From sequence record ON528737: DNA of 64,000 bases. One strand, 5' to 3'. A program made the translations under genes and the position numbers. Each line of letters opens with the position of its first letter. Position 1 is the first letter of the stretch. Positions 7,477 through 64,000 of the stretch are shown here, in pieces. The notes under the pieces are model-generated. The model was given only the letters and a program-made list of their open reading frames with translations, did no database searches and had not been told where the DNA came from. The DNA is from Shigella phage ESh27.

Positions 7477-9210
7477 TTACCCAATATCAATACGAGACCC
7501 GTCAACAGTATATTGTCCTGAAGCTATTGAGCTCATTGTAGTCATTGTCTCCGACCAATTACCAGCAACAGTCATATCAACATTACCATTAACCGTCCAT
7601 TTAACATTACCATTGACAGTATAGTCATGATTCCCTTCGACCTGAGTTTTAGCATCACCTTTAACAAGAATATCTGCATTTCCGTCAACAACTATTTTGA
7701 TATTACCCTTAACGTAAAGAGTTCCATCACCTTCAACAGTTTTAGTTTGGTTACCGCGAATAAAGATTGTGTCATTGCCGTCTATTTGATGGAGGCGGTC
7801 TGCCATGTTATAATATATTTCGTTAGCACCAACGTTAACAAGTTTATCACCAGAAACCAGGAAATTCCCATCACCGTTAGTGATGTCAAAAAGGTCTTCT
7901 ACAGTTTTACGAGTGCGACGCCCGGATGGAGAAACTTCCTCATACGACCCTGTTGGATGAACTAAGCGATAACGTTCGTTACCTGGAGTGTCGTCAAACT
8001 CTTGGATATGACCGCTTTCTGTTTCCATAGCATGAACATACGGGTATTCACCACGATAACTTGATTCAGGTTCTTTAAAAAGGATACGCGAATCTAATGG
8101 AACAGGAGGACCAGCCGGGTCTTCTGGATCGGTATTTCTAGTAACTAAATCGGCACCGACTCCTGGTGAAGGTGGTGTTTTAACAGGAACGCCATATGAT
8201 TCCATGTTACCAGTTAAAATAATTGTTGTTACACGTGAAGCACGCCCTTTAGTCTGTTGGAACCATAACGAATCGCGCCCGGATTTGTATGCGGTTTTCC
8301 AATCGCCTGTGGCCATTGCTTTAAGCATAGTATTGAATTTTGCTACACCGCCAACGCCCATTTGGAAGCACATGTTTTCTAATGCCATTTGGCGAGACCT
8401 ATTCATTTTGGCATAAACAGGTCCTACTTTAGAATTAGAACGAATGTCTTTCTGCATCTTAGCAAGGTCCTTCTCAAATAGAGCTGTTGCTTCTTCTAAT
8501 GTAATAGTCCCGGGATTTCCTGTTACTTCACGCCCTACTTGATCTGATAACAATTTATTAATTCGAGTCATGTCTCGGGTCTTTTCCATTACGATAAGGT
8601 GTCCAATACCTACTGTAGGATACCCTAGATGGTCCCAATAAACTTTATCACGAAGACCTTCATCACGACGTAACATTTCTGTTATTGTAAAATTAGGGTC
8701 ATCATCTTCTGGAATATTTGCTAAATCTGTATCATCTGGGTTTATACCATAATCTAAGTTGTTATCTTGAATTACGTTAGAATTCGAATAATAACCAGCT
8801 TCACCACCTTGGTTTAATACGTTCGTATCATTACCTAAACGTCGTGGATATTGACCTGTAGGGTCGGAAAAACCTTCGAGTCTATTAGGCTTTTCACGTA
8901 CTATTCCGCCATATGTACCAAGTACAATACCGTTTGTTTTCCATTTGTCTAAGAAATGACCATATACTCGAGTTCCTTCGACAGGGCCTGTAACAGAACC
9001 ACCAATACCCGACATTGATGCCGATGTAATAGGTTGAATAACAGTCATCCATGGAAGTTTTTCGGTAGGAATACCTTGTACGTCACCTTGTGCTCTCTGC
9101 GCAGGATGAAGTCCTACGACTCGTACTCGAACACGCCCTTGTTTCAATGGGTCCATTCTGTCCTCGACAACACCCACGAACCAATTAAGGCTACTGCTAA
9201 TCATTTCCAT
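7477..9210 (-). CDS. 5: baseplate hub / tail-associated lysozyme gp5
   Basis: 577 aa; internal T4-lysozyme-like segment (YWDHLGYPTVGIGHL...); C-terminal VxGxxxVxG beta-helix repeats. Confidence 0.9.
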   Translation of the reverse strand: MEMISSSLNWFVGVVEDRMDPLKQGRVRVRVVGLHPAQRAQGDVQGIPTEKLPWMTVIQPITSASMSGIGGSVTGPVEGTRVYGHFLDKWKTNGIVLGTYGGIVREKPNRLEGFSDPTGQYPRRLGNDTNVLNQGGEAGYYSNSNVIQDNNLDYGINPDDTDLANIPEDDDPNFTITEMLRRDEGLRDKVYWDHLGYPTVGIGHLIVMEKTRDMTRINKLLSDQVGREVTGNPGTITLEEATALFEKDLAKMQKDIRSNSKVGPVYAKMNRSRQMALENMCFQMGVGGVAKFNTMLKAMATGDWKTAYKSGRDSLWFQQTKGRASRVTTIILTGNMESYGVPVKTPPSPGVGADLVTRNTDPEDPAGPPVPLDSRILFKEPESSYRGEYPYVHAMETESGHIQEFDDTPGNERYRLVHPTGSYEEVSPSGRRTRKTVEDLFDITNGDGNFLVSGDKLVNVGANEIYYNMADRLHQIDGNDTIFIRGNQTKTVEGDGTLYVKGNIKIVVDGNADILVKGDAKTQVEGNHDYTVNGNVKWTVNGNVDMTVAGNWSETMTTMSSIASGQYTVDGSRIDIG

Positions 9211-12600: not shown

Positions 12601-13286
<686 letters not shown>

Positions 13287-13299
13287 TTTTCACAAAACA

Positions 13300-13334
13300 G
13301 TTTACATAAGGATGATGATGTGTTACTATCATCC
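13300..13334 (+). promoter_or_regulatory. early promoter (GTTTAC -35, TACTAT -10) with inverted repeat GGATGAT/ATCATCC
   Basis: -35 at 13300-13305, -10 at 13324-13329, 18-nt spacer. Confidence 0.5.
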
Positions 13335-13363
13335 TATCAAATAAACAACCTCAAGGAAATAAA

Positions 13364-13675
13364 ATGAAAACCTATCAAGAATTCATCGCGGAAGCTACTA
13401 AAGCGGATAAAAATTTTGTTATTAACACTAATGGCCCATTAGATGATGAATACGCTAATGCTATTATTAAGTCAATTTCTAATCAAGGCGTTGAAGTAAC
13501 AAATTTCGAATATAAGAAAAATGATACTTATATGGTAATTAGTATCAAAAAAGGTTCAAAGGCCAAAATTAAATCTGCGTTTGGTGTTATGCGAGTTGAC
13601 CAAATTGATAATCATGATTTTTCACAAACTGGGGTTAAACGCCAGAACACTATTTCATCTAAAGGCATAAAATAG
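13364..13675 (+). CDS. internal-protein-like protein with capsid targeting sequence (IPI position)
   Basis: N-terminus MKTYQEFIAEA equals the T4 internal-protein CTS; 103 aa; adjacent to 57B as ipI is in T4. Confidence 0.7.
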   Translation: MKTYQEFIAEATKADKNFVINTNGPLDDEYANAIIKSISNQGVEVTNFEYKKNDTYMVISIKKGSKAKIKSAFGVMRVDQIDNHDFSQTGVKRQNTISSKGIK

Positions 13676-13711
13676 TTTACATCTTGGTAGGACTATGTTA
13701 TAGTAGTCCTA
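13675..13711 (+). promoter_or_regulatory. early promoter cassette with palindrome TAGGACTA-N8-TAGTCCTA over the -10
   Basis: GTTTAC 13675-13680, TATAGT 13699-13704; 37-bp element repeated at 33491-33527. Confidence 0.5.
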
Positions 13712-13736
13712 ACAAAACAACAAAATGGAACCTAAA

Positions 13737-14000
13737 ATGAAAACTTTCAACGAATTCATCTCAGAATCGTCTGGTGTGAAAATTAACAAAGCGGTCAATC
13801 AGGTTATTGCTGATATTCTTAATTTGTATAACATTGACTTAACTCCGCATATCACGCTTGGTAACAAACGAAACTTTTTCATATTTGACACATCCGAACT
13901 TGACGAAAATCAGTTCAATAACATTCAACGTTTTGCGAATGATAAAGGTCTTCGACATGAGCCTGGTGGCTATAAAAAATACGCAATATATTTGAAATAA
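13737..14000 (+). CDS. internal-protein-like protein with CTS
   Basis: N-terminus MKTFNEFISES; start moved to the CTS methionine. Confidence 0.6.
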   Translation: MKTFNEFISESSGVKINKAVNQVIADILNLYNIDLTPHITLGNKRNFFIFDTSELDENQFNNIQRFANDKGLRHEPGGYKKYAIYLK

Positions 14001-14002
14001 AG

Positions 14003-14039
14003 GTATACAAGCCTATATGGATATGTTATAGTAGTCCTA
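14003..14039 (+). promoter_or_regulatory. early promoter cassette (variant -35 GTATAC, -10 TATAGT, TAGTCCTA arm)
   Basis: Shares ...tgttatagtagtccta core with 13675 and 33491 cassettes. Confidence 0.45.
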
Positions 14040-14069
14040 TCAAAACAAATGAGTAAATGGAGAAATAAA

Positions 14070-14255
14070 ATGAAACGCGCTGAACTGATTCGTAATGTTG
14101 CTGTAGTAATTGCTTCAATGGCTTTTAGTTTTTCGATGTTTGTAGGATTCATTTGCGGACTACTGACAACAACCGAAAATTCTATCTCATTGGTAGTAGC
14201 ATTTCTAATCGGTTTAATCGCTATTGTTATGGATAAAATTGCAAAAGGTGAGTAA
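14070..14255 (+). CDS. small hydrophobic membrane protein
   Basis: GGAG then ATG at 14070; two hydrophobic stretches. Confidence 0.5.
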   Translation: MKRAELIRNVAVVIASMAFSFSMFVGFICGLLTTTENSISLVVAFLIGLIAIVMDKIAKGE

Positions 14256-14618
14256 ATGAAATATCATGTATATGCAGATTTTGAAGCAAATCCTTCTAAA
14301 GACCCTGATTGTCGTTTGATACGTAGACCATTTGATTCGGCATCTCAAGCATGGGCTTGGATTAAAACTTGTACTCCTTCTTACACTTTCTTTGAAGTGG
14401 TAGATGATAACGGTGTTCTGCATCCAGAACCTACAGAAACTATTAATTTCCTTCTGTTTGCTGGTTATGACTGTTATCCTCTTGGTGGTATTGATGATCT
14501 TGTTGCTACAGGAAAAACTGTTGAAGCTCTTCGCGAAATTTATAAAAACGCAGAAGAAAATTTTGACTGGTATCATATTGTTGATGCTCATAGCTTTGAA
14601 GTGGTGGAACATTCATGA
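14256..14618 (+). CDS. hypothetical protein
   Basis: 120-aa ORF, tightly packed with neighbours. Confidence 0.6.
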   Translation: MKYHVYADFEANPSKDPDCRLIRRPFDSASQAWAWIKTCTPSYTFFEVVDDNGVLHPEPTETINFLLFAGYDCYPLGGIDDLVATGKTVEALREIYKNAEENFDWYHIVDAHSFEVVEHS

Positions 14619-42967: not shown

Positions 42968-43441
42968 ATGTTATTATCAGGCGCAAAATATAAAGAAGAA
43001 AAACAAAAATTTTATGATGCACAGAACGGTAAGTGTCCTATTTGCCGCCGTGAATTAGACTCTGATGTTCAAGGTAACCATCTTGACCACGACCATGAAT
43101 TAAACGGGCCAAAAGCCGGTAGAGTTCGTGGATTACTCTGTAATCTGTGCAACGCAGCAGAAGGTCAAATGAAGCATAAGTTCAACCGTTCCGGTTTGAA
43201 AGGTCAAAACGTTGATTACTTAGAATGGCTTGAAGCTCTTCTTGCTTATTTGAAACAAGATTATTCTGATAATAATATCCATCCTAATTTTGTTCCGGAT
43301 AAAACTAAAGAGTTCTCAAGACTAGGTAAAGAGGAAATGATGACCGAGATGCTTCAAAGAGGATTTGAATATAATGAATCTGATACTAAAACACAATTAA
43401 TAGCTTCATTCAAAAAGCAGCTTAGAAAGAGTTTAAAATGA
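42968..43441 (+). CDS. 49: endonuclease VII (Holliday junction resolvase)
   Basis: 157 aa; ...CPICRREL...HLDHDHELNGPKAGRVRGLLCNLCNAAEG... matches T4 gp49. Confidence 0.92.
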   Translation: MLLSGAKYKEEKQKFYDAQNGKCPICRRELDSDVQGNHLDHDHELNGPKAGRVRGLLCNLCNAAEGQMKHKFNRSGLKGQNVDYLEWLEALLAYLKQDYSDNNIHPNFVPDKTKEFSRLGKEEMMTEMLQRGFEYNESDTKTQLIASFKKQLRKSLK

Positions 43442-45255
43442 AAATTGAAAAAGAAATTGAAGGATTAATTTATAAAACTAATAAAGACCTTTTAAACGAG
43501 AATGCTAATAAAGATTCTCGTGTTTTTCCAACTCAACGGGACCTTATGGCTGGTATTGTGTCTAAGCACATTGCCAAAAATATGGTCCCGTCTTTTATTA
43601 TGAATGCGCATGAAAGTGGAATTATCCACATGCATGATATTGATTATTCTCCTGCTCTTCCATTTACTAATTGCTGTTTAGTCGATTTAAAGGGGATGCT
43701 TGAGAATGGTTTTAAATTAGGCAATGCTCAAATCGAAACGCCTAAATCAATTGGTGTTGCTACTGCAATTATGGCACAAATTACTGCACAAGTTGCTTCC
43801 CATCAATACGGCGGAACGACTTTTGCTAATGTAGATAAAGTACTTTCTCCTTATGTTAAACGCACCTATGCAAAACATATTGAGGACGCAGAAAAATGGC
43901 AAATCGCTGATGCGTTGAATTATGCTCAATCTAAAACAGAAAAAGACGTATACGATGCATTCCAAGCTTATGAATATGAAGTAAATACTCTCTTTAGTTC
44001 AAATGGACAAACGCCTTTTGTAACAATTACATTTGGTATGGGAACCGATTGGACTGAACGAATGATTCAGAAAGCAATTCTGAAAAATCGGATTAAAGGT
44101 CTTGGACGTGATGGGATAACTCCTATTTTCCCTAAACTTGTTATGTTCATTGAAGAAGGTGTTAATCTTTATAAAGATGATCCAAATTATGATATTAAAC
44201 AACTTGCGTTAGAATGTGCAAGCAAAAGAATGTATCCTGACATCATTTCGGTTAAGAATAATAAAGCTATTACTGGTTCTTCAGTTCCAGTTTCTCCAAT
44301 GGGTTGCCGTAGTTTCTTGAGTGTGTGGAAAGATTCGACCGGTAATGAAATTCTTGATGGACGTAATAATCTAGGTGTTGTAACGCTGAATCTTCCTCGC
44401 ATCGCGTTAGATTCTTATATTGGAACACAGTTCAATGAACAGAAATTTGTTGAGCTATTTAATGAACGAATGGATCTGTGCTTTGAAGCCTTGATGTGCA
44501 GAATTAGTTCTTTAAAGGGTGTTAAAGCAACTGTAGCTCCTATTCTTTACCAAGAAGGTGCATTCGGTGTTCGTCTTAAACCTGATGATGATATAATTGA
44601 GTTATTTAAAAACGGTAGAAGTTCAGTGTCTTTAGGATACATTGGTATTCATGAATTGAATATTCTTGTTAGTCGTGATATTGGACAAGAAATTTTAACT
44701 AAAATGAATGCTCATCTTAAACAGTGGACTGAAAGAACTGGATTTGCTTTTAGTTTATATTCGACTCCTGCTGAAAACCTTTGTTATCGCTTCTGTAAAC
44801 TTGATACAGAAAAATACGGAAGTGTAAAAGATGTTACCGATAAAGGCTGGTACACTAATAGTTTCCACGTTTCAGTAGAAGAAAATATTACTCCGTTTGA
44901 AAAGATTTCTCGTGAAGCGCCATATCATTTCATTGCGACAGGTGGTCACATTTCTTATGTTGAACTTCCTGATATGAAAAATAACCTAAAAGGTCTTGAG
45001 GCTGTCTGGGATTATGCTGCACAACATTTAGATTATTTTGGTGTTAATATGCCAGTGGATAAATGTTTTACATGCGGAAGTACTCATGAAATGACTCCTA
45101 CTGAAAACGGATTTGTTTGTTCAGTTTGCGGAGAAACTGATCCTAAAAAGATGAACACTATAAGAAGGACGTGCGGTTATTTGGGAAATCCGAACGAACG
45201 CGGATTTAATCTCGGTAAAAATAAAGAAATCATGCATAGGGTTAAACACCAATGA
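43438..45255 (+). CDS. nrdD: anaerobic ribonucleoside-triphosphate reductase
   Basis: 605 aa continuous ORF; C-terminal zinc ribbon and glycyl radical motif RRTCGY. Confidence 0.92.
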   Translation: MKIEKEIEGLIYKTNKDLLNENANKDSRVFPTQRDLMAGIVSKHIAKNMVPSFIMNAHESGIIHMHDIDYSPALPFTNCCLVDLKGMLENGFKLGNAQIETPKSIGVATAIMAQITAQVASHQYGGTTFANVDKVLSPYVKRTYAKHIEDAEKWQIADALNYAQSKTEKDVYDAFQAYEYEVNTLFSSNGQTPFVTITFGMGTDWTERMIQKAILKNRIKGLGRDGITPIFPKLVMFIEEGVNLYKDDPNYDIKQLALECASKRMYPDIISVKNNKAITGSSVPVSPMGCRSFLSVWKDSTGNEILDGRNNLGVVTLNLPRIALDSYIGTQFNEQKFVELFNERMDLCFEALMCRISSLKGVKATVAPILYQEGAFGVRLKPDDDIIELFKNGRSSVSLGYIGIHELNILVSRDIGQEILTKMNAHLKQWTERTGFAFSLYSTPAENLCYRFCKLDTEKYGSVKDVTDKGWYTNSFHVSVEENITPFEKISREAPYHFIATGGHISYVELPDMKNNLKGLEAVWDYAAQHLDYFGVNMPVDKCFTCGSTHEMTPTENGFVCSVCGETDPKKMNTIRRTCGYLGNPNERGFNLGKNKEIMHRVKHQ

Positions 45256-45722
45256 ATTATGATAGATTTTATCCTTGCGATTTTGTGAATGGCCCTGGTT
45301 GCAGGGTCGTTCTTTTCGTTACAGGTTGTTTGCATAAATGCGAAGGGTGTTATAATAAATCAACATGGAATGCTAGAAATGGTATTCCATTCACCGGTGA
45401 AACACTAGAACAATTAATTGAATGTTTGAATAATGATTATATAGAAGGATTAACTATAACCGGAGGTGACCCTCTCTATCCTGACAACCGAGATGTTATT
45501 CATTCTGTGGTTCAAACTATTAAAAATATTTATCCAAATAAAAGCATTTGGTTGTGGACAGGATATAAGTTTGAAGATATTAAACAACTAGAAATGCTTA
45601 AATATGTTGATGTTATTATTGATGGGAAGTATGAGAAAAATCTTCCGACCAAAAAGCTGTGGCGAGGATCAGATAATCAGCGACTTTGGTCAAATACCAA
45701 TGGGGTGTGGAAACATGATTAA
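45252..45722 (+). CDS. nrdG: anaerobic RNR activating enzyme (radical SAM)
   Basis: CDFVNGPGCRVVLFVTGCLHKCEGCYN cysteine cluster; 156 aa. Confidence 0.9.
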   Translation: MNYDRFYPCDFVNGPGCRVVLFVTGCLHKCEGCYNKSTWNARNGIPFTGETLEQLIECLNNDYIEGLTITGGDPLYPDNRDVIHSVVQTIKNIYPNKSIWLWTGYKFEDIKQLEMLKYVDVIIDGKYEKNLPTKKLWRGSDNQRLWSNTNGVWKHD

Positions 45723-60097: not shown

Positions 60098-60733
60098 ATG
60101 AAAACTACTCCTATTACTATCGCTATTGACGCAATCATAAAACAAGCTTCTTCTTTGGCCGCTATGGCCAAAGTAATTAGTCAAAACCCTGCTCGTTATA
60201 ATGTTATTCTAGAAACACTTCGACGCCCTGGACTGAGTAATTATGAAAGTCGTGTAATTATTACAGGTGTTGGTAAGAACGCTAATATCGCAACTAAAGC
60301 TTCTGAGACATTTGCTTCACTCGGTATCCCAAGTATGTACTTGAACACCGGGCATTATTCTCACGGTGATGCAGGATTTATTGCGCCTAATGATGTGTTG
60401 ATTCATATTAGTCGTTCTGGTAAGACTGAAGAAATGATAGGTGTTGCTAAACATCTTCGTATGATTCGTCCTCAGGTTAAACAGATTCTGTTACATTGTA
60501 ACCCTGACATTCCACAAGAATACGAAGCTCTTTTTGATTATACGTTCTGTACCGGTATCGCGGTAGAAGTTGACGAGAACTCTTTAGCTCCGACTATGTC
60601 CACTACATTGTTGTTAGCGCTTATCGATACGTTTGCTATCAACCTTTCGTCTGAACGTGGATTTACCTCTAATGACTTCCTTAAGTTCCACCCTGGCGGT
60701 GCACTAGGTGCCATGTTACGAGGCGAACAATGA
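60098..60733 (+). CDS. SIS-domain sugar phosphate isomerase, KdsD/GutQ-type (putative D-arabinose-5-phosphate isomerase)
   Basis: VIITGVGKNANIATKASETFASLGIPS...HGDAGFIAPNDVLIHISRSGKTEE...LAPTMSTTLLLALIDTFA...HPGGALG pattern of API SIS domains. Confidence 0.8.
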   Translation: MKTTPITIAIDAIIKQASSLAAMAKVISQNPARYNVILETLRRPGLSNYESRVIITGVGKNANIATKASETFASLGIPSMYLNTGHYSHGDAGFIAPNDVLIHISRSGKTEEMIGVAKHLRMIRPQVKQILLHCNPDIPQEYEALFDYTFCTGIAVEVDENSLAPTMSTTLLLALIDTFAINLSSERGFTSNDFLKFHPGGALGAMLRGEQ

Positions 60734-60873
60734 AAGCAATAACAATAGGACTTTTACTATTGATGCTTGTCATGACTATCTACTGGAGCTTAACGGCTCC
60801 GGTAATGATTCCAACACTTGTAATTGGATGGATTATGATTGGTCTACAGGCAAAGTATGAATGCTTTAACTAG
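60730..60873 (+). CDS. small hydrophobic ORF (47 aa)
   Basis: ATGA overlap with isomerase stop; two hydrophobic stretches. Confidence 0.35.
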   Translation: MKAITIGLLLLMLVMTIYWSLTAPVMIPTLVIGWIMIGLQAKYECFN

Positions 60874-60914: not shown

Positions 60915-62600
60915 ATGAAAAAAGCTGTTATTCTTGGTGCTGGATTGGCAACTCGTTTATATCCAATTACTCACCATATTCCAAAAGTTCTTGTGAACTA
61001 TAAACAAGACACTATTCTGAGCAATTTGTATACAATTTATTCTGACCTTGGCGCAGATGAAATTATTGTAGTAGTTCATTCAAAATTTGCTGAAACCGTT
61101 CGAGCTTATTGTGAGCAAGAAGGGTTCAATGTGACTATTCGTACAGTTGATGAAGCGTATGGTTCTGCTTATGCTCTTGCTAAATTACACAAAGATTTAG
61201 ACGGCCATAACGTAGTTGTTAACTGGTGCGATATTATTCCTGATTTTGGTTCATGGTCTTGGAATGTTAACGCAATCTATGTTAAGGGTGATGAATGTCG
61301 ATATAATTTCGATGGTGAAAATATCACTAACGTAGGTTCAACAGGCGGTAATGTTGTAGGAATTTATCAGTTCAAAGACTGGGAATTCTATATGGGTTCT
61401 ACTGATGAGGAAATTCATGAATACTGCAAAGGACGTGATTTCGTAGAATTCCTTTACAGCAGCGCATTCAATAAATCAGAGCTTATGAATCTAATTGATT
61501 TAGGTGATATGCCTAAACTTGAAAAAGCTCATGAAGTTCGTGAACTTAATCGTAGTTTTAATGCAGTTGAAATTGGTGAAGAAACTGTAACTAAATTCGC
61601 ATTAACTGAACAAGGTCGAGCTCTTCAAAAAGATGAGATTTCATGGTATTTGAAAGTGAAATCAGATTCAGTCCCTCAGTTAGTTTCTGTTAATGAAAAT
61701 AACTTTGAAATGGAACGCATTAAAGGTAAGCCAGCATTTGAATATATTAAATCCAAATCAAGTCTTGCTCGTCCACAAATTGTTGATGCAATTTTAGATG
61801 CACTGAAATTCAGCACAGACATTTATTTTGTAAGTCCTGAAACTGTTCGTCGTGATTTCACTAAAGAATTCTATACGAAAGTTATTGATCGTTGTGAAAG
61901 CATTCAACCATTGATTGATTCATTTGGTAAAATCACACATGTGAACTACACTAAGATTGGACGTCTGAAGCCAATGCTGAAACAAGCTTTAGAACATCTT
62001 ATTCGTTATCATAACCGTTCTCAGGGACAGTACTCTGTTATTCATGGTGACCCAAACTTCAGTAATACTATGATTACCGATAACGGCGAAGTCAAGTTTA
62101 TCGACCCTCGTGGATATTTTGGTGAAACCAAGATTTACGGGCCAAAATTGTATGATGAAGCTAAAGTGCTTTATGCTGTTTCAGGTTATGATGAATTCAA
62201 CGCTAATCCGACCTGGGGCCAGTTTATTATTGATGAAACAACTTGTAATGTGACTATTAACATCAATCCATTAGTTTACAAATATGGAAAGATGAGTTCG
62301 TTTAACGAGTATCATCATTTGGCAGTGGCAATTATCTGGATTGCATTAGGTGGTTATTTCAAGAATAATCCACTTAAAGCGGTAGCCGCATATTATAAAG
62401 GTATGGAACTTCTAACTAAGCAATTACGTAACATGGGCCGTGTACTTCAAGATGGCTCTATTAGTTATGACGTAGCAGAACCTGTAACGGCTACTCTGAT
62501 TACAAAAAATCCTGGTAAATGGGTACTAACTGATAAAGAAACTGGTGTTTCCTATCGTCCAATCGGTGGCGATATCACTCATCAATGGGAACGAATCTAA
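60915..62600 (+). CDS. bifunctional sugar-1-phosphate nucleotidyltransferase / sugar kinase (APH-fold)
   Basis: N-terminal ILGAGLATRLYPIT (RmlA-like G-x-G-T-R-L); C-terminal HGDPNFSN...FIDPRG kinase motifs; 561 aa. Confidence 0.75.
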   Translation: MKKAVILGAGLATRLYPITHHIPKVLVNYKQDTILSNLYTIYSDLGADEIIVVVHSKFAETVRAYCEQEGFNVTIRTVDEAYGSAYALAKLHKDLDGHNVVVNWCDIIPDFGSWSWNVNAIYVKGDECRYNFDGENITNVGSTGGNVVGIYQFKDWEFYMGSTDEEIHEYCKGRDFVEFLYSSAFNKSELMNLIDLGDMPKLEKAHEVRELNRSFNAVEIGEETVTKFALTEQGRALQKDEISWYLKVKSDSVPQLVSVNENNFEMERIKGKPAFEYIKSKSSLARPQIVDAILDALKFSTDIYFVSPETVRRDFTKEFYTKVIDRCESIQPLIDSFGKITHVNYTKIGRLKPMLKQALEHLIRYHNRSQGQYSVIHGDPNFSNTMITDNGEVKFIDPRGYFGETKIYGPKLYDEAKVLYAVSGYDEFNANPTWGQFIIDETTCNVTININPLVYKYGKMSSFNEYHHLAVAIIWIALGGYFKNNPLKAVAAYYKGMELLTKQLRNMGRVLQDGSISYDVAEPVTATLITKNPGKWVLTDKETGVSYRPIGGDITHQWERI

Positions 62601-62986
62601 TGCACCGTGTAGAAAACATGCTTAATCTTTGTTTTGATGTCGATGATTGTATAACAGAGTGGAATAACAATCGTGATTATGTGAACTTCAAACCGGACGT
62701 CGAAATGGTGTCCGCCATTAATGCCCTGTATGATGCAGGGCACACCATAACGCTTTACACGGCTCGTGGTATGAAGTCTGTAGGACCTGGTCGTATAGCA
62801 ATTGACATTCTCCCGAGTCTGATTCAGAACTTGGAAAACATTGGTTTGAAGTACCATAATTTGCTAACACATAAACCAGTATATGATTGGATTATCGACG
62901 ACAAAGCTATGCGTCCTGACGAATTCAAAGCTCTTATGAATAAAGGCGAATTCGAAACATTTAAATCATATAAACCGAATCTATAA
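62600..62986 (+). CDS. HAD-superfamily phosphatase-like protein
   Basis: N-terminal LCFDVDDCIT resembles HAD motif I; start set at ATG overlapping upstream stop. Confidence 0.55.
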   Translation: MHRVENMLNLCFDVDDCITEWNNNRDYVNFKPDVEMVSAINALYDAGHTITLYTARGMKSVGPGRIAIDILPSLIQNLENIGLKYHNLLTHKPVYDWIIDDKAMRPDEFKALMNKGEFETFKSYKPNL

Positions 62987-63043
62987 TAATTTAAGTAAGA
63001 CCTGCAAAAACCATCGCATCAATTAACGTGAGATGCAAAAAAA

Positions 63044-64000
63044 ATGAATACTTTTAAAATCGGAACGAATTTTGATTTAGCTCTTCTTGATAAAATCGTA
63101 GAGCTCAATAAAACCTATCCTAATAGCTTGATAAACGAAGTATATGGCTCTACAAGAGAAATGGCTTTTGTAGCAGCCAGACCTGATTTTAGGCTTCCTG
63201 ACGTCGACAAAAAGATGTTAGAAGACTATGTTAAACGTTGTAACGAATTAGGTATTTGCTTTAACTATACACTCAACACGATAAATCCTGGTTCAAAAAG
63301 AGAACTAGTTGAGTGGAAGAAGAAAGCTATTCAGGATTATGTTCAGTATCTTTGGTCAATAGGCGTATGGCGTATTACTATCGCTAACCCTGTTGTTATG
63401 GAAATTGTTCGTGAAGTCAATAAAGATATTGAGATTGAAGTTTCAACAATTCTACATGTTGATGCCGTAACTCAAATCAAATACTTACACGACCAATATA
63501 ACATCAAAAAGGTCTGCTGTGGAATTCATAAGAACCGTTCAGTTTCTTTCCTGAAGCGTGCAGCAGAGTTTTGCAATAAGAACAATATAATATTTGAAGT
63601 TCTTGTAAATGAGTTCTGTTCTAATGCTGGTAAAGGGTATACAACACATTGTAGCTATCGTGACTCTTGCTATATTTTCCATAGTACTGATGTTACAGCT
63701 GATGATGCTAAATCCTTAAATGGATATCCAATGCAACACTGCATTAAAGCTCGTGATACAGACCCATTTAACTGGCTGAGAACTCGTTTTGTTCGTCCTC
63801 AAGATTTGAAACTTTATAATGATATTGGTATCACTCAATTCAAAGTTTCAGGACGTACAGGTAGCACAGACTACATTTTGAAAGTTCTTGAAGCATACGC
63901 TTCTGAAAAGTTTGAAGGTAATTTGTTAGAACTGTGGAAGCCTTTAGAGACTATTTTCACTCTTGAAAATGAGACTGAGTTTTCACATACAGTAAATATT
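63044..64000 (+). CDS. U32-family-like protein (partial, runs off window end)
   Basis: No stop before 64000; ...YTLNT..., ...IANPVVMEIVRE..., Cys-rich EFCSNAGKGYTTHCSYRDSC recall the U32 family; assignment tentative. Confidence 0.45.
   Translation, partial: MNTFKIGTNFDLALLDKIVELNKTYPNSLINEVYGSTREMAFVAARPDFRLPDVDKKMLEDYVKRCNELGICFNYTLNTINPGSKRELVEWKKKAIQDYVQYLWSIGVWRITIANPVVMEIVREVNKDIEIEVSTILHVDAVTQIKYLHDQYNIKKVCCGIHKNRSVSFLKRAAEFCNKNNIIFEVLVNEFCSNAGKGYTTHCSYRDSCYIFHSTDVTADDAKSLNGYPMQHCIKARDTDPFNWLRTRFVRPQDLKLYNDIGITQFKVSGRTGSTDYILKVLEAYASEKFEGNLLELWKPLETIFTLENETEFSHTVNI

Follow-up and report, generated by a model that had tools for sequence, protein, structure and literature searches.

At the end of a 64,000-nucleotide stretch of Shigella phage ESh27 (sequence record ON528737; the whole stretch is hereafter the window) lies the gene for a U32-family iron-sulfur (Fe-S) protein, the orthologue of RB69 gp50, which we judge, with a probability of roughly 0.6, to be a prephenate-dependent, O2-independent C5 hydroxylase of a phage DNA-precursor pyrimidine. 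The enzyme would hydroxylate C5 of a pyrimidine deoxynucleotide, most likely converting deoxycytidine monophosphate (dCMP) to 5-hydroxy-dCMP (5hodCMP), and would take the oxygen from prephenate rather than from O2, as in UbiU/UbiV, TrhP, and RlhA. A thymidylate synthase (TS) homologue encoded two genes downstream, the 5hodCMP synthase, makes this product with O2 and a flavin, and the U32 enzyme would be its anaerobic counterpart. Both enzymes would share the later steps, namely a deoxynucleoside monophosphate (dNMP) kinase, incorporation by the polymerase, and arabinosyl transfer from uridine diphosphate (UDP)-arabinose, and cytosine could become arabinosyl-5-hydroxycytosine in an enteric host growing with or without oxygen. 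The gene, its family and fold, the conserved essential residues, the gene neighbourhoods, and the phyletic pattern are matters of direct observation. The gene itself is already known and annotated, and the function proposed for it appears to be new.

From its ATG the reading frame stays open without interruption for 319 codons to the end of the window, and the encoded fragment is identical to the first 319 residues of the 386-residue protein of phage Bas47/AlbertHofmann; the 67 C-terminal residues, with a CX4CX3CX2C motif among them, fall beyond the window, which is 97–98% identical to Mosigvirus (RB69-like) coliphages. The preliminary description of this DNA had called the gene a U32-family member truncated by the window edge, and both points are borne out by the full-length Bas47 orthologue, by a match to Pfam Peptidase_U32 PF01136 (42.9 bits, with a gathering threshold of 22.4 bits; residues 94–286 on profile positions 2–192 of 233), and by a fold comparison in which the top match is the U32 structure 5D88, consistent with the TIM-barrel-like fold of U32. 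The profile search and a check of the Cys ligands thus returned U32 and conserved cysteines, and not a different TIM-barrel family lacking a Cys cluster. PF01136 is precomputed in all listed homologues of the protein except three, and PHROG 5757 is matched at E 9.7e-221 (residues 1–319 on profile positions 2–320 of 387), its name ‘peptidase’ being annotation only. Searches of PDB sequences, whether with the protein alone or with a profile of 109 sequences, yielded chance matches only, with 5D88 recovered by fold comparison alone.

Within the family, no named cellular U32 equivalog of NCBIfam is matched, the sole hit being UbiU NF047963, which scores 19.5 bits where 440 are required. The phage protein is 15–20% identical to its four E. 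coli paralogues (MG1655: UbiU, UbiV, TrhP, and RlhA) and lacks their C-terminal regions, and a profile of the phage protein aligns with RlhA in hhalign at 85% probability (E 6e-6). As judged from sequence, the phage U32 proteins form a subfamily separate from the UbiU, UbiV, TrhP, and RlhA orthologous groups, comprising 492 clusters (50% identity) at E ≤ 1e-30, and 1165 at E ≤ 1e-10. The fragment contains 2.8% Cys, compared with 1.15% for the window. The U32 protein is under strong constraint: between phage genera its identity is 83–89%, the highest in the module, compared with 74–83% for the TS homologue and 40–73% for the kinase, the glycosyltransferase, and AfhE.

Some database records start the protein at an ATG further upstream, which in ESh27 (63035) is not in frame with the start at 63044 because the A-run between the two consists of eight A's. 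This homopolymer, within 63035–63046 and just before the U32 start codon, varies in length; in Bas47 the run is shorter, which allows the U32 protein to be annotated as three codons longer at its N-terminus (MQKMNTF...).

The residues essential for known U32 hydroxylation systems are retained. E185, C203, and C209 correspond in the alignments to TrhP E162/C170/C177 and RlhA E161/C169/C176, all shown to be essential by Sakai et al. 2019 (PMC6599085), and UbiU C169/C176 align likewise. The Glu and two Cys of the U32 signature E-x-F-x2-G-[SA]-[LIVM]-C-x4-G-x-C are therefore kept in the phage protein, however their spacing differs, being E-x17-C-x5-C rather than E-x7-C-x6-C, and no Cys of the phage protein aligns with the third and fourth canonical cysteines (UbiU C193/C232; the C-x3-C of TrhP and RlhA). 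C192 and C233 are invariant among 121 close homologues, and C192, C203, and C233 are ~100% conserved among 131 distant members, which makes C192 and C233 candidate stand-ins for the missing cluster cysteines. Position 209 is Cys or His in distant members (His in 54 of 132), an alternation that is the behaviour of a metal ligand. At the C-terminus, C340-x4-C345-x3-C349-x2-C352 is ~95% conserved, bringing the near-universal metal-ligand positions to eight, which suggests two putative metal centres, one canonical and one additional.

The neighbourhoods of the gene were compared across 68 fetched loci, in which open reading frames (ORFs) were called and then searched with iterated profiles of the module proteins. 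Homologues of RB69 gp46:47, the first arabinosyltransferase, and of the thymidylate-kinase-like gp45 accompany U32 far beyond the T4-like phages, and U32 loci nearly always include a nucleotide kinase, from one of two families. Among loci with a glycosyltransferase of the 5-hydroxycytosine (5hoC) type, 17 carry both a TS homologue and U32 (16 T4-like loci and L027), 27, all non-T4, carry U32 with no TS homologue within ~8 kb, and 4 carry the TS homologue only; one locus has neither, on a contig that stops 277 nt past the sugar genes. Triads of kinase, glycosyltransferase, and U32 without sugar-activation genes occur in six loci (L029, L030, L031, L033, L041, and L051), and the other neighbours of U32 include dCMP deaminase, dUTPase, NUDIX/MazG, and UDG-family proteins, and Pol III alpha. 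A pair of sister gut phages, L085 and L070 (IMG/VR 3300045988_077387 and _147269), are 80–97% identical in the proteins flanking one locus, which holds a MazG-like pyrophosphatase and a TS homologue in L085, and a kinase, a glycosyltransferase, U32, and a GT47-like protein in L070. L085 surfaced when contigs were scanned for an unrelated gene of the neighbourhood, and the locus looks like a swappable DNA-modification island. U32 occurs where TS homologues otherwise sit and at the position expected of a base-activating enzyme.

Further genes beside U32 concern the supply of prephenate. In Erwinia phage Virsaitis27 the U32 stop codon is overlapped by a gene for a chorismate mutase of type II (44.6 bits to Pfam CM_2, whose cut-off is 27), and 54 records of T4-like phages contain such a gene, which separates U32 from the TS homologue wherever coordinates or annotation were inspected. 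These records include phages of Serratia, Klebsiella, Enterobacter, Yersinia, Proteus, Edwardsiella, Pectobacterium, Providencia, Morganella, Erwinia, and Kosakonia, and Shewanella phage Thanatos. The phage chorismate mutase retains the EcCM residues R11, R28, K39, E52, S84, and Q88. In metagenomic phages whose U32 is only 45–54% identical to that of ESh27, the neighbour is instead of the DAHP synthase type, either fused to a C-terminal chorismate mutase (L035, L036, L037, and L044, with L058 and L082 added by local search) or alone (L004 and L026). We considered whether these DAHP_synth_1 neighbours are KDO-8-P synthases using arabinose-5-phosphate, which would have hinted at a sugar role, and rejected this, as they reach scores three to four times as high with the DAHP synthase models of NCBIfam (150–237 bits versus 50–67 bits for KDO8P synthase models).

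Prephenate, the product of chorismate mutase, is the oxygen donor for UbiU/UbiV, a pathway that the chorismate mutase domain of PheA alone restores (PMC10990095), and TrhP and RlhA are prephenate-dependent as well (PMC6599085). No other plausible prephenate user was seen in the T4-like clusters inspected, and gene adjacency, in several independent arrangements, lends indirect support to a dependence of phage U32 on prephenate. In Virsaitis27 a Seg-like homing endonuclease gene (L008:6355-6993) is inserted between the phosphatase and U32 genes, which shows this junction to be a site of mobile-element traffic in T4-like phages.

The distribution of the gene agrees, though not perfectly, with oxygen ecology. 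Among cultured phages, 221 records contain a member of the U32 clade, each with at least 80% identity, and the hosts are all Enterobacterales or Shewanella. The AfhE-type arabinose enzyme is found in 368 records, including 57 Acinetobacter phages and one Pseudomonas phage, and the U32 clade is absent from these 57, whose host genus is aerobic, and from the Pseudomonas phage. In the cluster of Acinetobacter phage Apostate the phosphatase and TS-homologue genes are immediate neighbours, neither U32 nor chorismate mutase being present, and DLP3 has the same appearance in the table of PMC13326640. In GTDB genomes the clade lies on 12 contigs, every label being that of a gut or sediment anaerobe (among them Erysipelotrichales, Gastranaerophilaceae, Oscillospiraceae, Romboutsia, Tannerella, and Angelakisella, together with a scaffold, in L067, of the Phocaeicola faecalis isolate FXJYN30E22). 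The anaerobic ribonucleotide reductase NrdD is too broadly distributed for a clean demonstration of its absence from Acinetobacter phages. The window itself encodes NrdD and its activase NrdG, and the phage is thus equipped for O2-free deoxynucleotide synthesis and anaerobic replication.

The published pathway shows where a second hydroxylase would fit. Lee et al. (NAR 2026; PMC13326640) describe arabinosylated 5-hydroxycytosine in RB69 DNA and show that gp48, the TS homologue, binds flavin and hydroxylates dCMP with incorporation of 18O from O2, the oxygen source having been confirmed in vitro by He et al. 2026 according to the same paper. In RB69-type phages all cytosine is replaced through the nucleotide pool, whilst arabinosyl transfer occurs on DNA (PMC13326640). 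The UDP-arabinose route, as PMC13326640 gives it citing He et al., consists of homologues of the isomerase, AfhE, and AfhF, and is complete from ribulose-5-phosphate to UDP-arabinofuranose; the homologues of these three are the UDP-arabinose genes upstream of U32. An anaerobic route would be needed because the TS-type synthase uses O2 while the hosts live largely without it. Homology and context together point to hydroxylation as the activity, to cytosine rather than uracil and a mononucleotide rather than a polymer as the substrate, to the use of prephenate, and to an aerobic/anaerobic division of labour, all of which we infer. A mononucleotide is favoured because nucleotide kinases are constantly nearby and the extensions of the RNA enzymes are absent; in some distant phages, where a dCMP deaminase adjoins U32, the substrate may instead be deoxyuridine monophosphate. 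The preliminary description had suggested an extra modification step, and of this the relevance to DNA modification is strongly supported by the neighbourhoods, however U32 probably provides a second route rather than an additional step, since the TS homologue already supplies the hydroxyl in air (PMC13326640).

Hydroxylation of cytosine already in DNA, after replication and in the manner of RlhA and TrhP acting on folded RNA, would agree with the use of polynucleotides by all characterised pyrimidine-directed U32 systems (PMC6599085), and with the transfer of arabinose on DNA itself. We consider it improbable, as the phage protein, with 386 residues and PF01136 only, lacks the C-terminal domains of TrhP and RlhA and resembles the small-molecule proteins UbiU/UbiV, as a nucleotide kinase accompanies it nearly everywhere, together with dUTPase, dCMP deaminase, or NUDIX genes, and as cytosine replacement runs through the nucleotide pool (PMC13326640). 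About equally improbable is a function in the sugar branch or as a redox helper, whether a ‘sugar or heterocycle reductase’, a UDP-arabinose enzyme, or an Fe-S reductase supplying the TS-type hydroxylase with reduced flavin. The position of U32 directly after the three UDP-arabinose genes, the agreement between the annotations of two groups (PMC13326640 Table 1; UDP-arabinose biosynthesis in Bas47), and the presence of isomerase and kinase/pyrophosphorylase with U32 in 19 of 45 non-T4 loci would all fit such a function. However, the UDP-arabinofuranose route is already complete as described in the literature (isomerase, AfhE, and AfhF), and Acinetobacter and Dhakavirus phages have the same pathway genes without U32, with arabinosyl-5hoC DNA present in the phages of these types analysed in the literature. 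The triads have no sugar-activation genes, 27 loci have no TS homologue to assist, and the adjacent chorismate mutase and DAHP synthase genes would be left unexplained. The tie to the nucleotide-sugar pathway drawn in the preliminary description is consequently doubtful: the sugar pathway occurs without U32, and U32 with kinase and glycosyltransferase occurs without sugar activation, which argues for a place of U32 in the base branch rather than the sugar branch.

An RNA hydroxylase, producing 5-hydroxyuridine or 5-hydroxycytidine in phage or host tRNA or rRNA and lying among DNA-modification genes incidentally, is somewhat more doubtful still. T4-like phages encode tRNAs, and the phage motif C-x5/6-C-Y-I-x-H-[AS] is RlhA-like; moreover, the only known pyrimidine substrates of U32 proteins are tRNA U34 and 23S rRNA C2501 (PMC6599085). 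Against this, the protein has no cellular equivalent in NCBIfam (UbiU, 19.5 bits versus 440) and no RNA-binding extensions, genes for dNMP kinase, glycosyltransferase, dUTPase, and deaminase stay linked to it over unrelated phage lineages, and U32 modules exchange with TS-type DNA-modification modules at one locus. That the protein is a true collagenase-like U32 peptidase, as annotated, is hardly credible: database names speak for it, whereas the family label is historical, the characterised E. coli members belong to hydroxylation pathways and contain or require Fe-S clusters (PMC10990095, PMC6599085), the residues conserved in the phage protein are metal ligands, and the surrounding genes concern nucleotide metabolism. 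The sugar or redox, RNA, and peptidase explanations each miss the linkage to chorismate mutase and DAHP synthase, the modules with U32 only, or both.

Several points weigh against a prephenate-dependent hydroxylase of DNA precursors. The functional case is built from guilt by association and from homology at 12–20% identity, and no U32 protein has yet had its hydroxylase activity reconstituted in vitro (PMC10990095). Of the four cluster cysteines canonical for U32 proteins, only two are in place, and the remaining ligands are inferred from conservation. Most of the loci were gathered by way of the U32 gene itself, which biases the counts, and the absence of TS from the phages with U32 only covers ~8 kb on each side of U32. 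A scan with a narrow alignment of the glycosyltransferase returned largely the same contigs. Mosigvirus, the lineage of the window, has no chorismate mutase gene of its own and carries only an unrelated 79-residue ORF, so that prephenate would come from host PheA/TyrA. Dhakavirus WG01, which infects E. coli and arabinosylates 5hoC, lacks the pair of U32 and mutase genes, and the gene is therefore not obligatory in enteric hosts. Bin labels of metagenome-assembled genomes are weak evidence of host and indicate the environment more reliably. PMC13326640 lists gp50 in its Table 1 as a ‘sugar or heterocycle reductase’, from a match to 5D88 and without discussion, and its Discussion raises the RlhA and TrhP/TrhO pathways only as unrelated to the TS-type enzyme. 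The literature covered, which did not extend to He et al. 2026 and Mahler et al. 2025, holds no link of U32, prephenate, or chorismate mutase to phage DNA modification, and neither the paper on phage Thanatos nor Thomas et al. 2018 treats the function of the U32 gene.

The 79-residue ORF of Mosigviruses, in Bas47 at L001:10203-10442, overlaps the U32 stop codon just past the end of the window. It also lies by the U32 gene in Yersinia phages, and beside chorismate mutase in Pectobacterium phage PM2 (L019) and in a metagenomic T4-like contig (L023). Its product may assist the U32 protein as an accessory factor. A degenerate chorismate mutase was considered for this ORF and rejected, there being no Pfam or NCBIfam match, no BLAST similarity, and no alignment of the catalytic residues.

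A wider and more tentative reading, to which we give slightly less than an even chance, is that the phage U32 subfamily as a whole serves as the O2-independent C5 hydroxylase of pyrimidine deoxynucleotides for viral DNA hypermodification, which would make it the first U32 for DNA. Taken together with this, and at the same level of confidence for the whole, U32 might be the sole entry to O-glycosylated 5-hydroxypyrimidine DNA in phages of strict anaerobes, the DAHP synthase and/or chorismate mutase of the phages might raise the supply of prephenate, and a second operon might lead to further bases, for example 5-methoxy- or 5-oxyacetyl-pyrimidines in DNA. This second operon, conserved on contigs binned with anaerobes, encodes a GP88-family protein (PF17338), a fusion of guanylate kinase and SAM-methyltransferase, a 267-residue protein of no family, and U32, and occupies the roughly 3–7 kb that lead up to U32 (L060, L062, L065, L066 without the GP88-family gene, L067, and L068 without the 267-residue protein gene). 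By analogy with the conversion of 5-hydroxyuridine (ho5U) to 5-methoxyuridine and uridine 5-oxyacetic acid (mo5U/cmo5U) in tRNA, it could mark 5-alkoxy-pyrimidine DNA modification.

Other associations of U32 were also seen. L060 has two U32 paralogues (7992-9089 and 13218-14351), with a radical-SAM/SPASM gene beside the second, and radical-SAM/SPASM proteins recur by both U32-type and TS-type modules (L060; L003:1314-2249; L097:7082-8110). A RimK-like ATP-grasp gene (PF08443; L063:1627-2691, L057:5092-6597, and 9 more loci) and two small conserved ORFs of 82 and 109 residues adjoin U32 in 8–11 metagenomic loci.

Arabinosyl-5-hydroxycytosine DNA was worked out only in 2025–2026, and its hydroxylase requires O2 whilst gut hosts are mostly anaerobic. 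If U32 is the hydroxylase proposed here, a prephenate bypass would explain how the modification persists in the gut and, with it, the protection from restriction and CRISPR, which would be relevant to phage therapy with RB69-like phages. The chemistry of organic oxygen donors in U32 proteins would extend from RNA and quinones to DNA precursors, and the presence of shikimate-pathway genes in phages would be explained. The phage U32, as a small, soluble protein of high conservation that acts on a simple nucleotide, could permit in vitro reconstitution for the family, and many gut and sediment phages would be flagged for hydroxypyrimidine-based DNA modification that prediction rules based on TS homologues miss.

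The features of the window are collected in Table 1. The phosphatase has no Pfam match, and the C-terminus of the Bas47 AfhE orthologue is kinase-like. In the gap between the isomerase and kinase/pyrophosphorylase genes lies a 47-codon ORF (60730-60873) with no family match, which is annotated in the same place in Bas47, JK42, and Winklervirus Virsaitis27.

Table 1. The U32 gene, its predicted catalytic or metal-binding residues, and other features of the window.
Feature	Coordinates	Strand	Basis or remarks
U32-family Fe-S protein gene, RB69 gp50 / RB69p050 orthologue	63044..64000	+	codons 1-319 of 386; window edge cuts the rest
Catalytic/metal-binding segment of U32	63596..63742	+	alignment with TrhP/RlhA and conservation
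E185	63596-63598		
C192	63617-63619		
C203	63650-63652		
C209	63668-63670		
H213			
C233	63740-63742		
HAD-type phosphatase (AfhF / RB69 gp51-like), final UDP-arabinose-branch gene	62585..62986	+	position and annotation orthologous in Bas47
Bifunctional arabinose-phosphate kinase / UDP-arabinose pyrophosphorylase (AfhE / RB69 gp52:53-like)	60915..62600	+	N-terminal Pfam NTP_transferase
Arabinose-5-phosphate isomerase-like SIS protein (RB69 gp55-like)	60098..60733	+	Pfam SIS 40 bits; annotation of relatives
NrdD anaerobic ribonucleotide reductase	43438-45255	+	605 aa; Pfam NRDD 570.8 bits and Gly_radical
NrdG activase	45252-45722	+	156 aa, 3.8% Cys; Fer4_12 165.7 bits and Radical_SAM

The arrangement proposed for the phage has a close parallel in tRNA 5-hydroxyuridine formation in E. 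coli, where O2-dependent TrhO and the prephenate-dependent U32 protein TrhP, two unrelated enzymes, carry out one C5 hydroxylation, a duality read by its authors as an adaptation to aerobic and anaerobic life (PMC6599085). Like TrhO and TrhP, the phage would pair an O2- and flavin-dependent enzyme, the TS homologue, with a U32 protein, and the essential Glu and two Cys are shared. Unlike TrhP, to which it is 19% identical, the phage protein would act on a deoxynucleotide bound for DNA rather than on tRNA, lacks the C-terminal domain of TrhP, has 10 additional residues separating the Glu from the first Cys, and places the remaining ligands elsewhere, with the additional C-terminal CX4CX3CX2C. 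RlhA, the 23S rRNA ho5C2501 synthase, is linked to prephenate-dependent cytosine C5 hydroxylation, the base chemistry proposed for the phage, and shares the motif at the second Cys, however it is a protein of 653 residues with large extra domains that serves a single ribosomal residue, compared with a single domain of 386 residues in the phage.

UbiU/UbiV are, like phage U32, small U32 Fe-S proteins; they act on a small molecule and back up the flavin- and O2-dependent UbiI/H/F over the oxygen range (PMC10990095). They differ in forming a heterodimer with the accessory protein UbiT and in having a lipid substrate, and the phage protein is not a member of their group (19.5 versus 440 bits). The phage 5hodCMP synthase (RB69 gp48, DLP3 gp80, and the HY126 enzyme) would have the same product and pathway position as U32; its gene lies two genes downstream of U32 in relatives, and the enzyme feeds the same kinase and arabinosyltransferases. 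It has a thymidylate synthase fold, binds flavin, draws its oxygen from O2, and is experimentally proven, whereas the role of U32 is a proposed one. The T4-type ribonucleotide reductases NrdAB and NrdDG offer a precedent, within these same phages, for an aerobic and an anaerobic enzyme at one step of DNA-precursor synthesis. T4 encodes the aerobic NrdAB as well as the anaerobic pair, and the likeness to the proposed TS and U32 hydroxylases is one of logic, in another reaction and other protein families.

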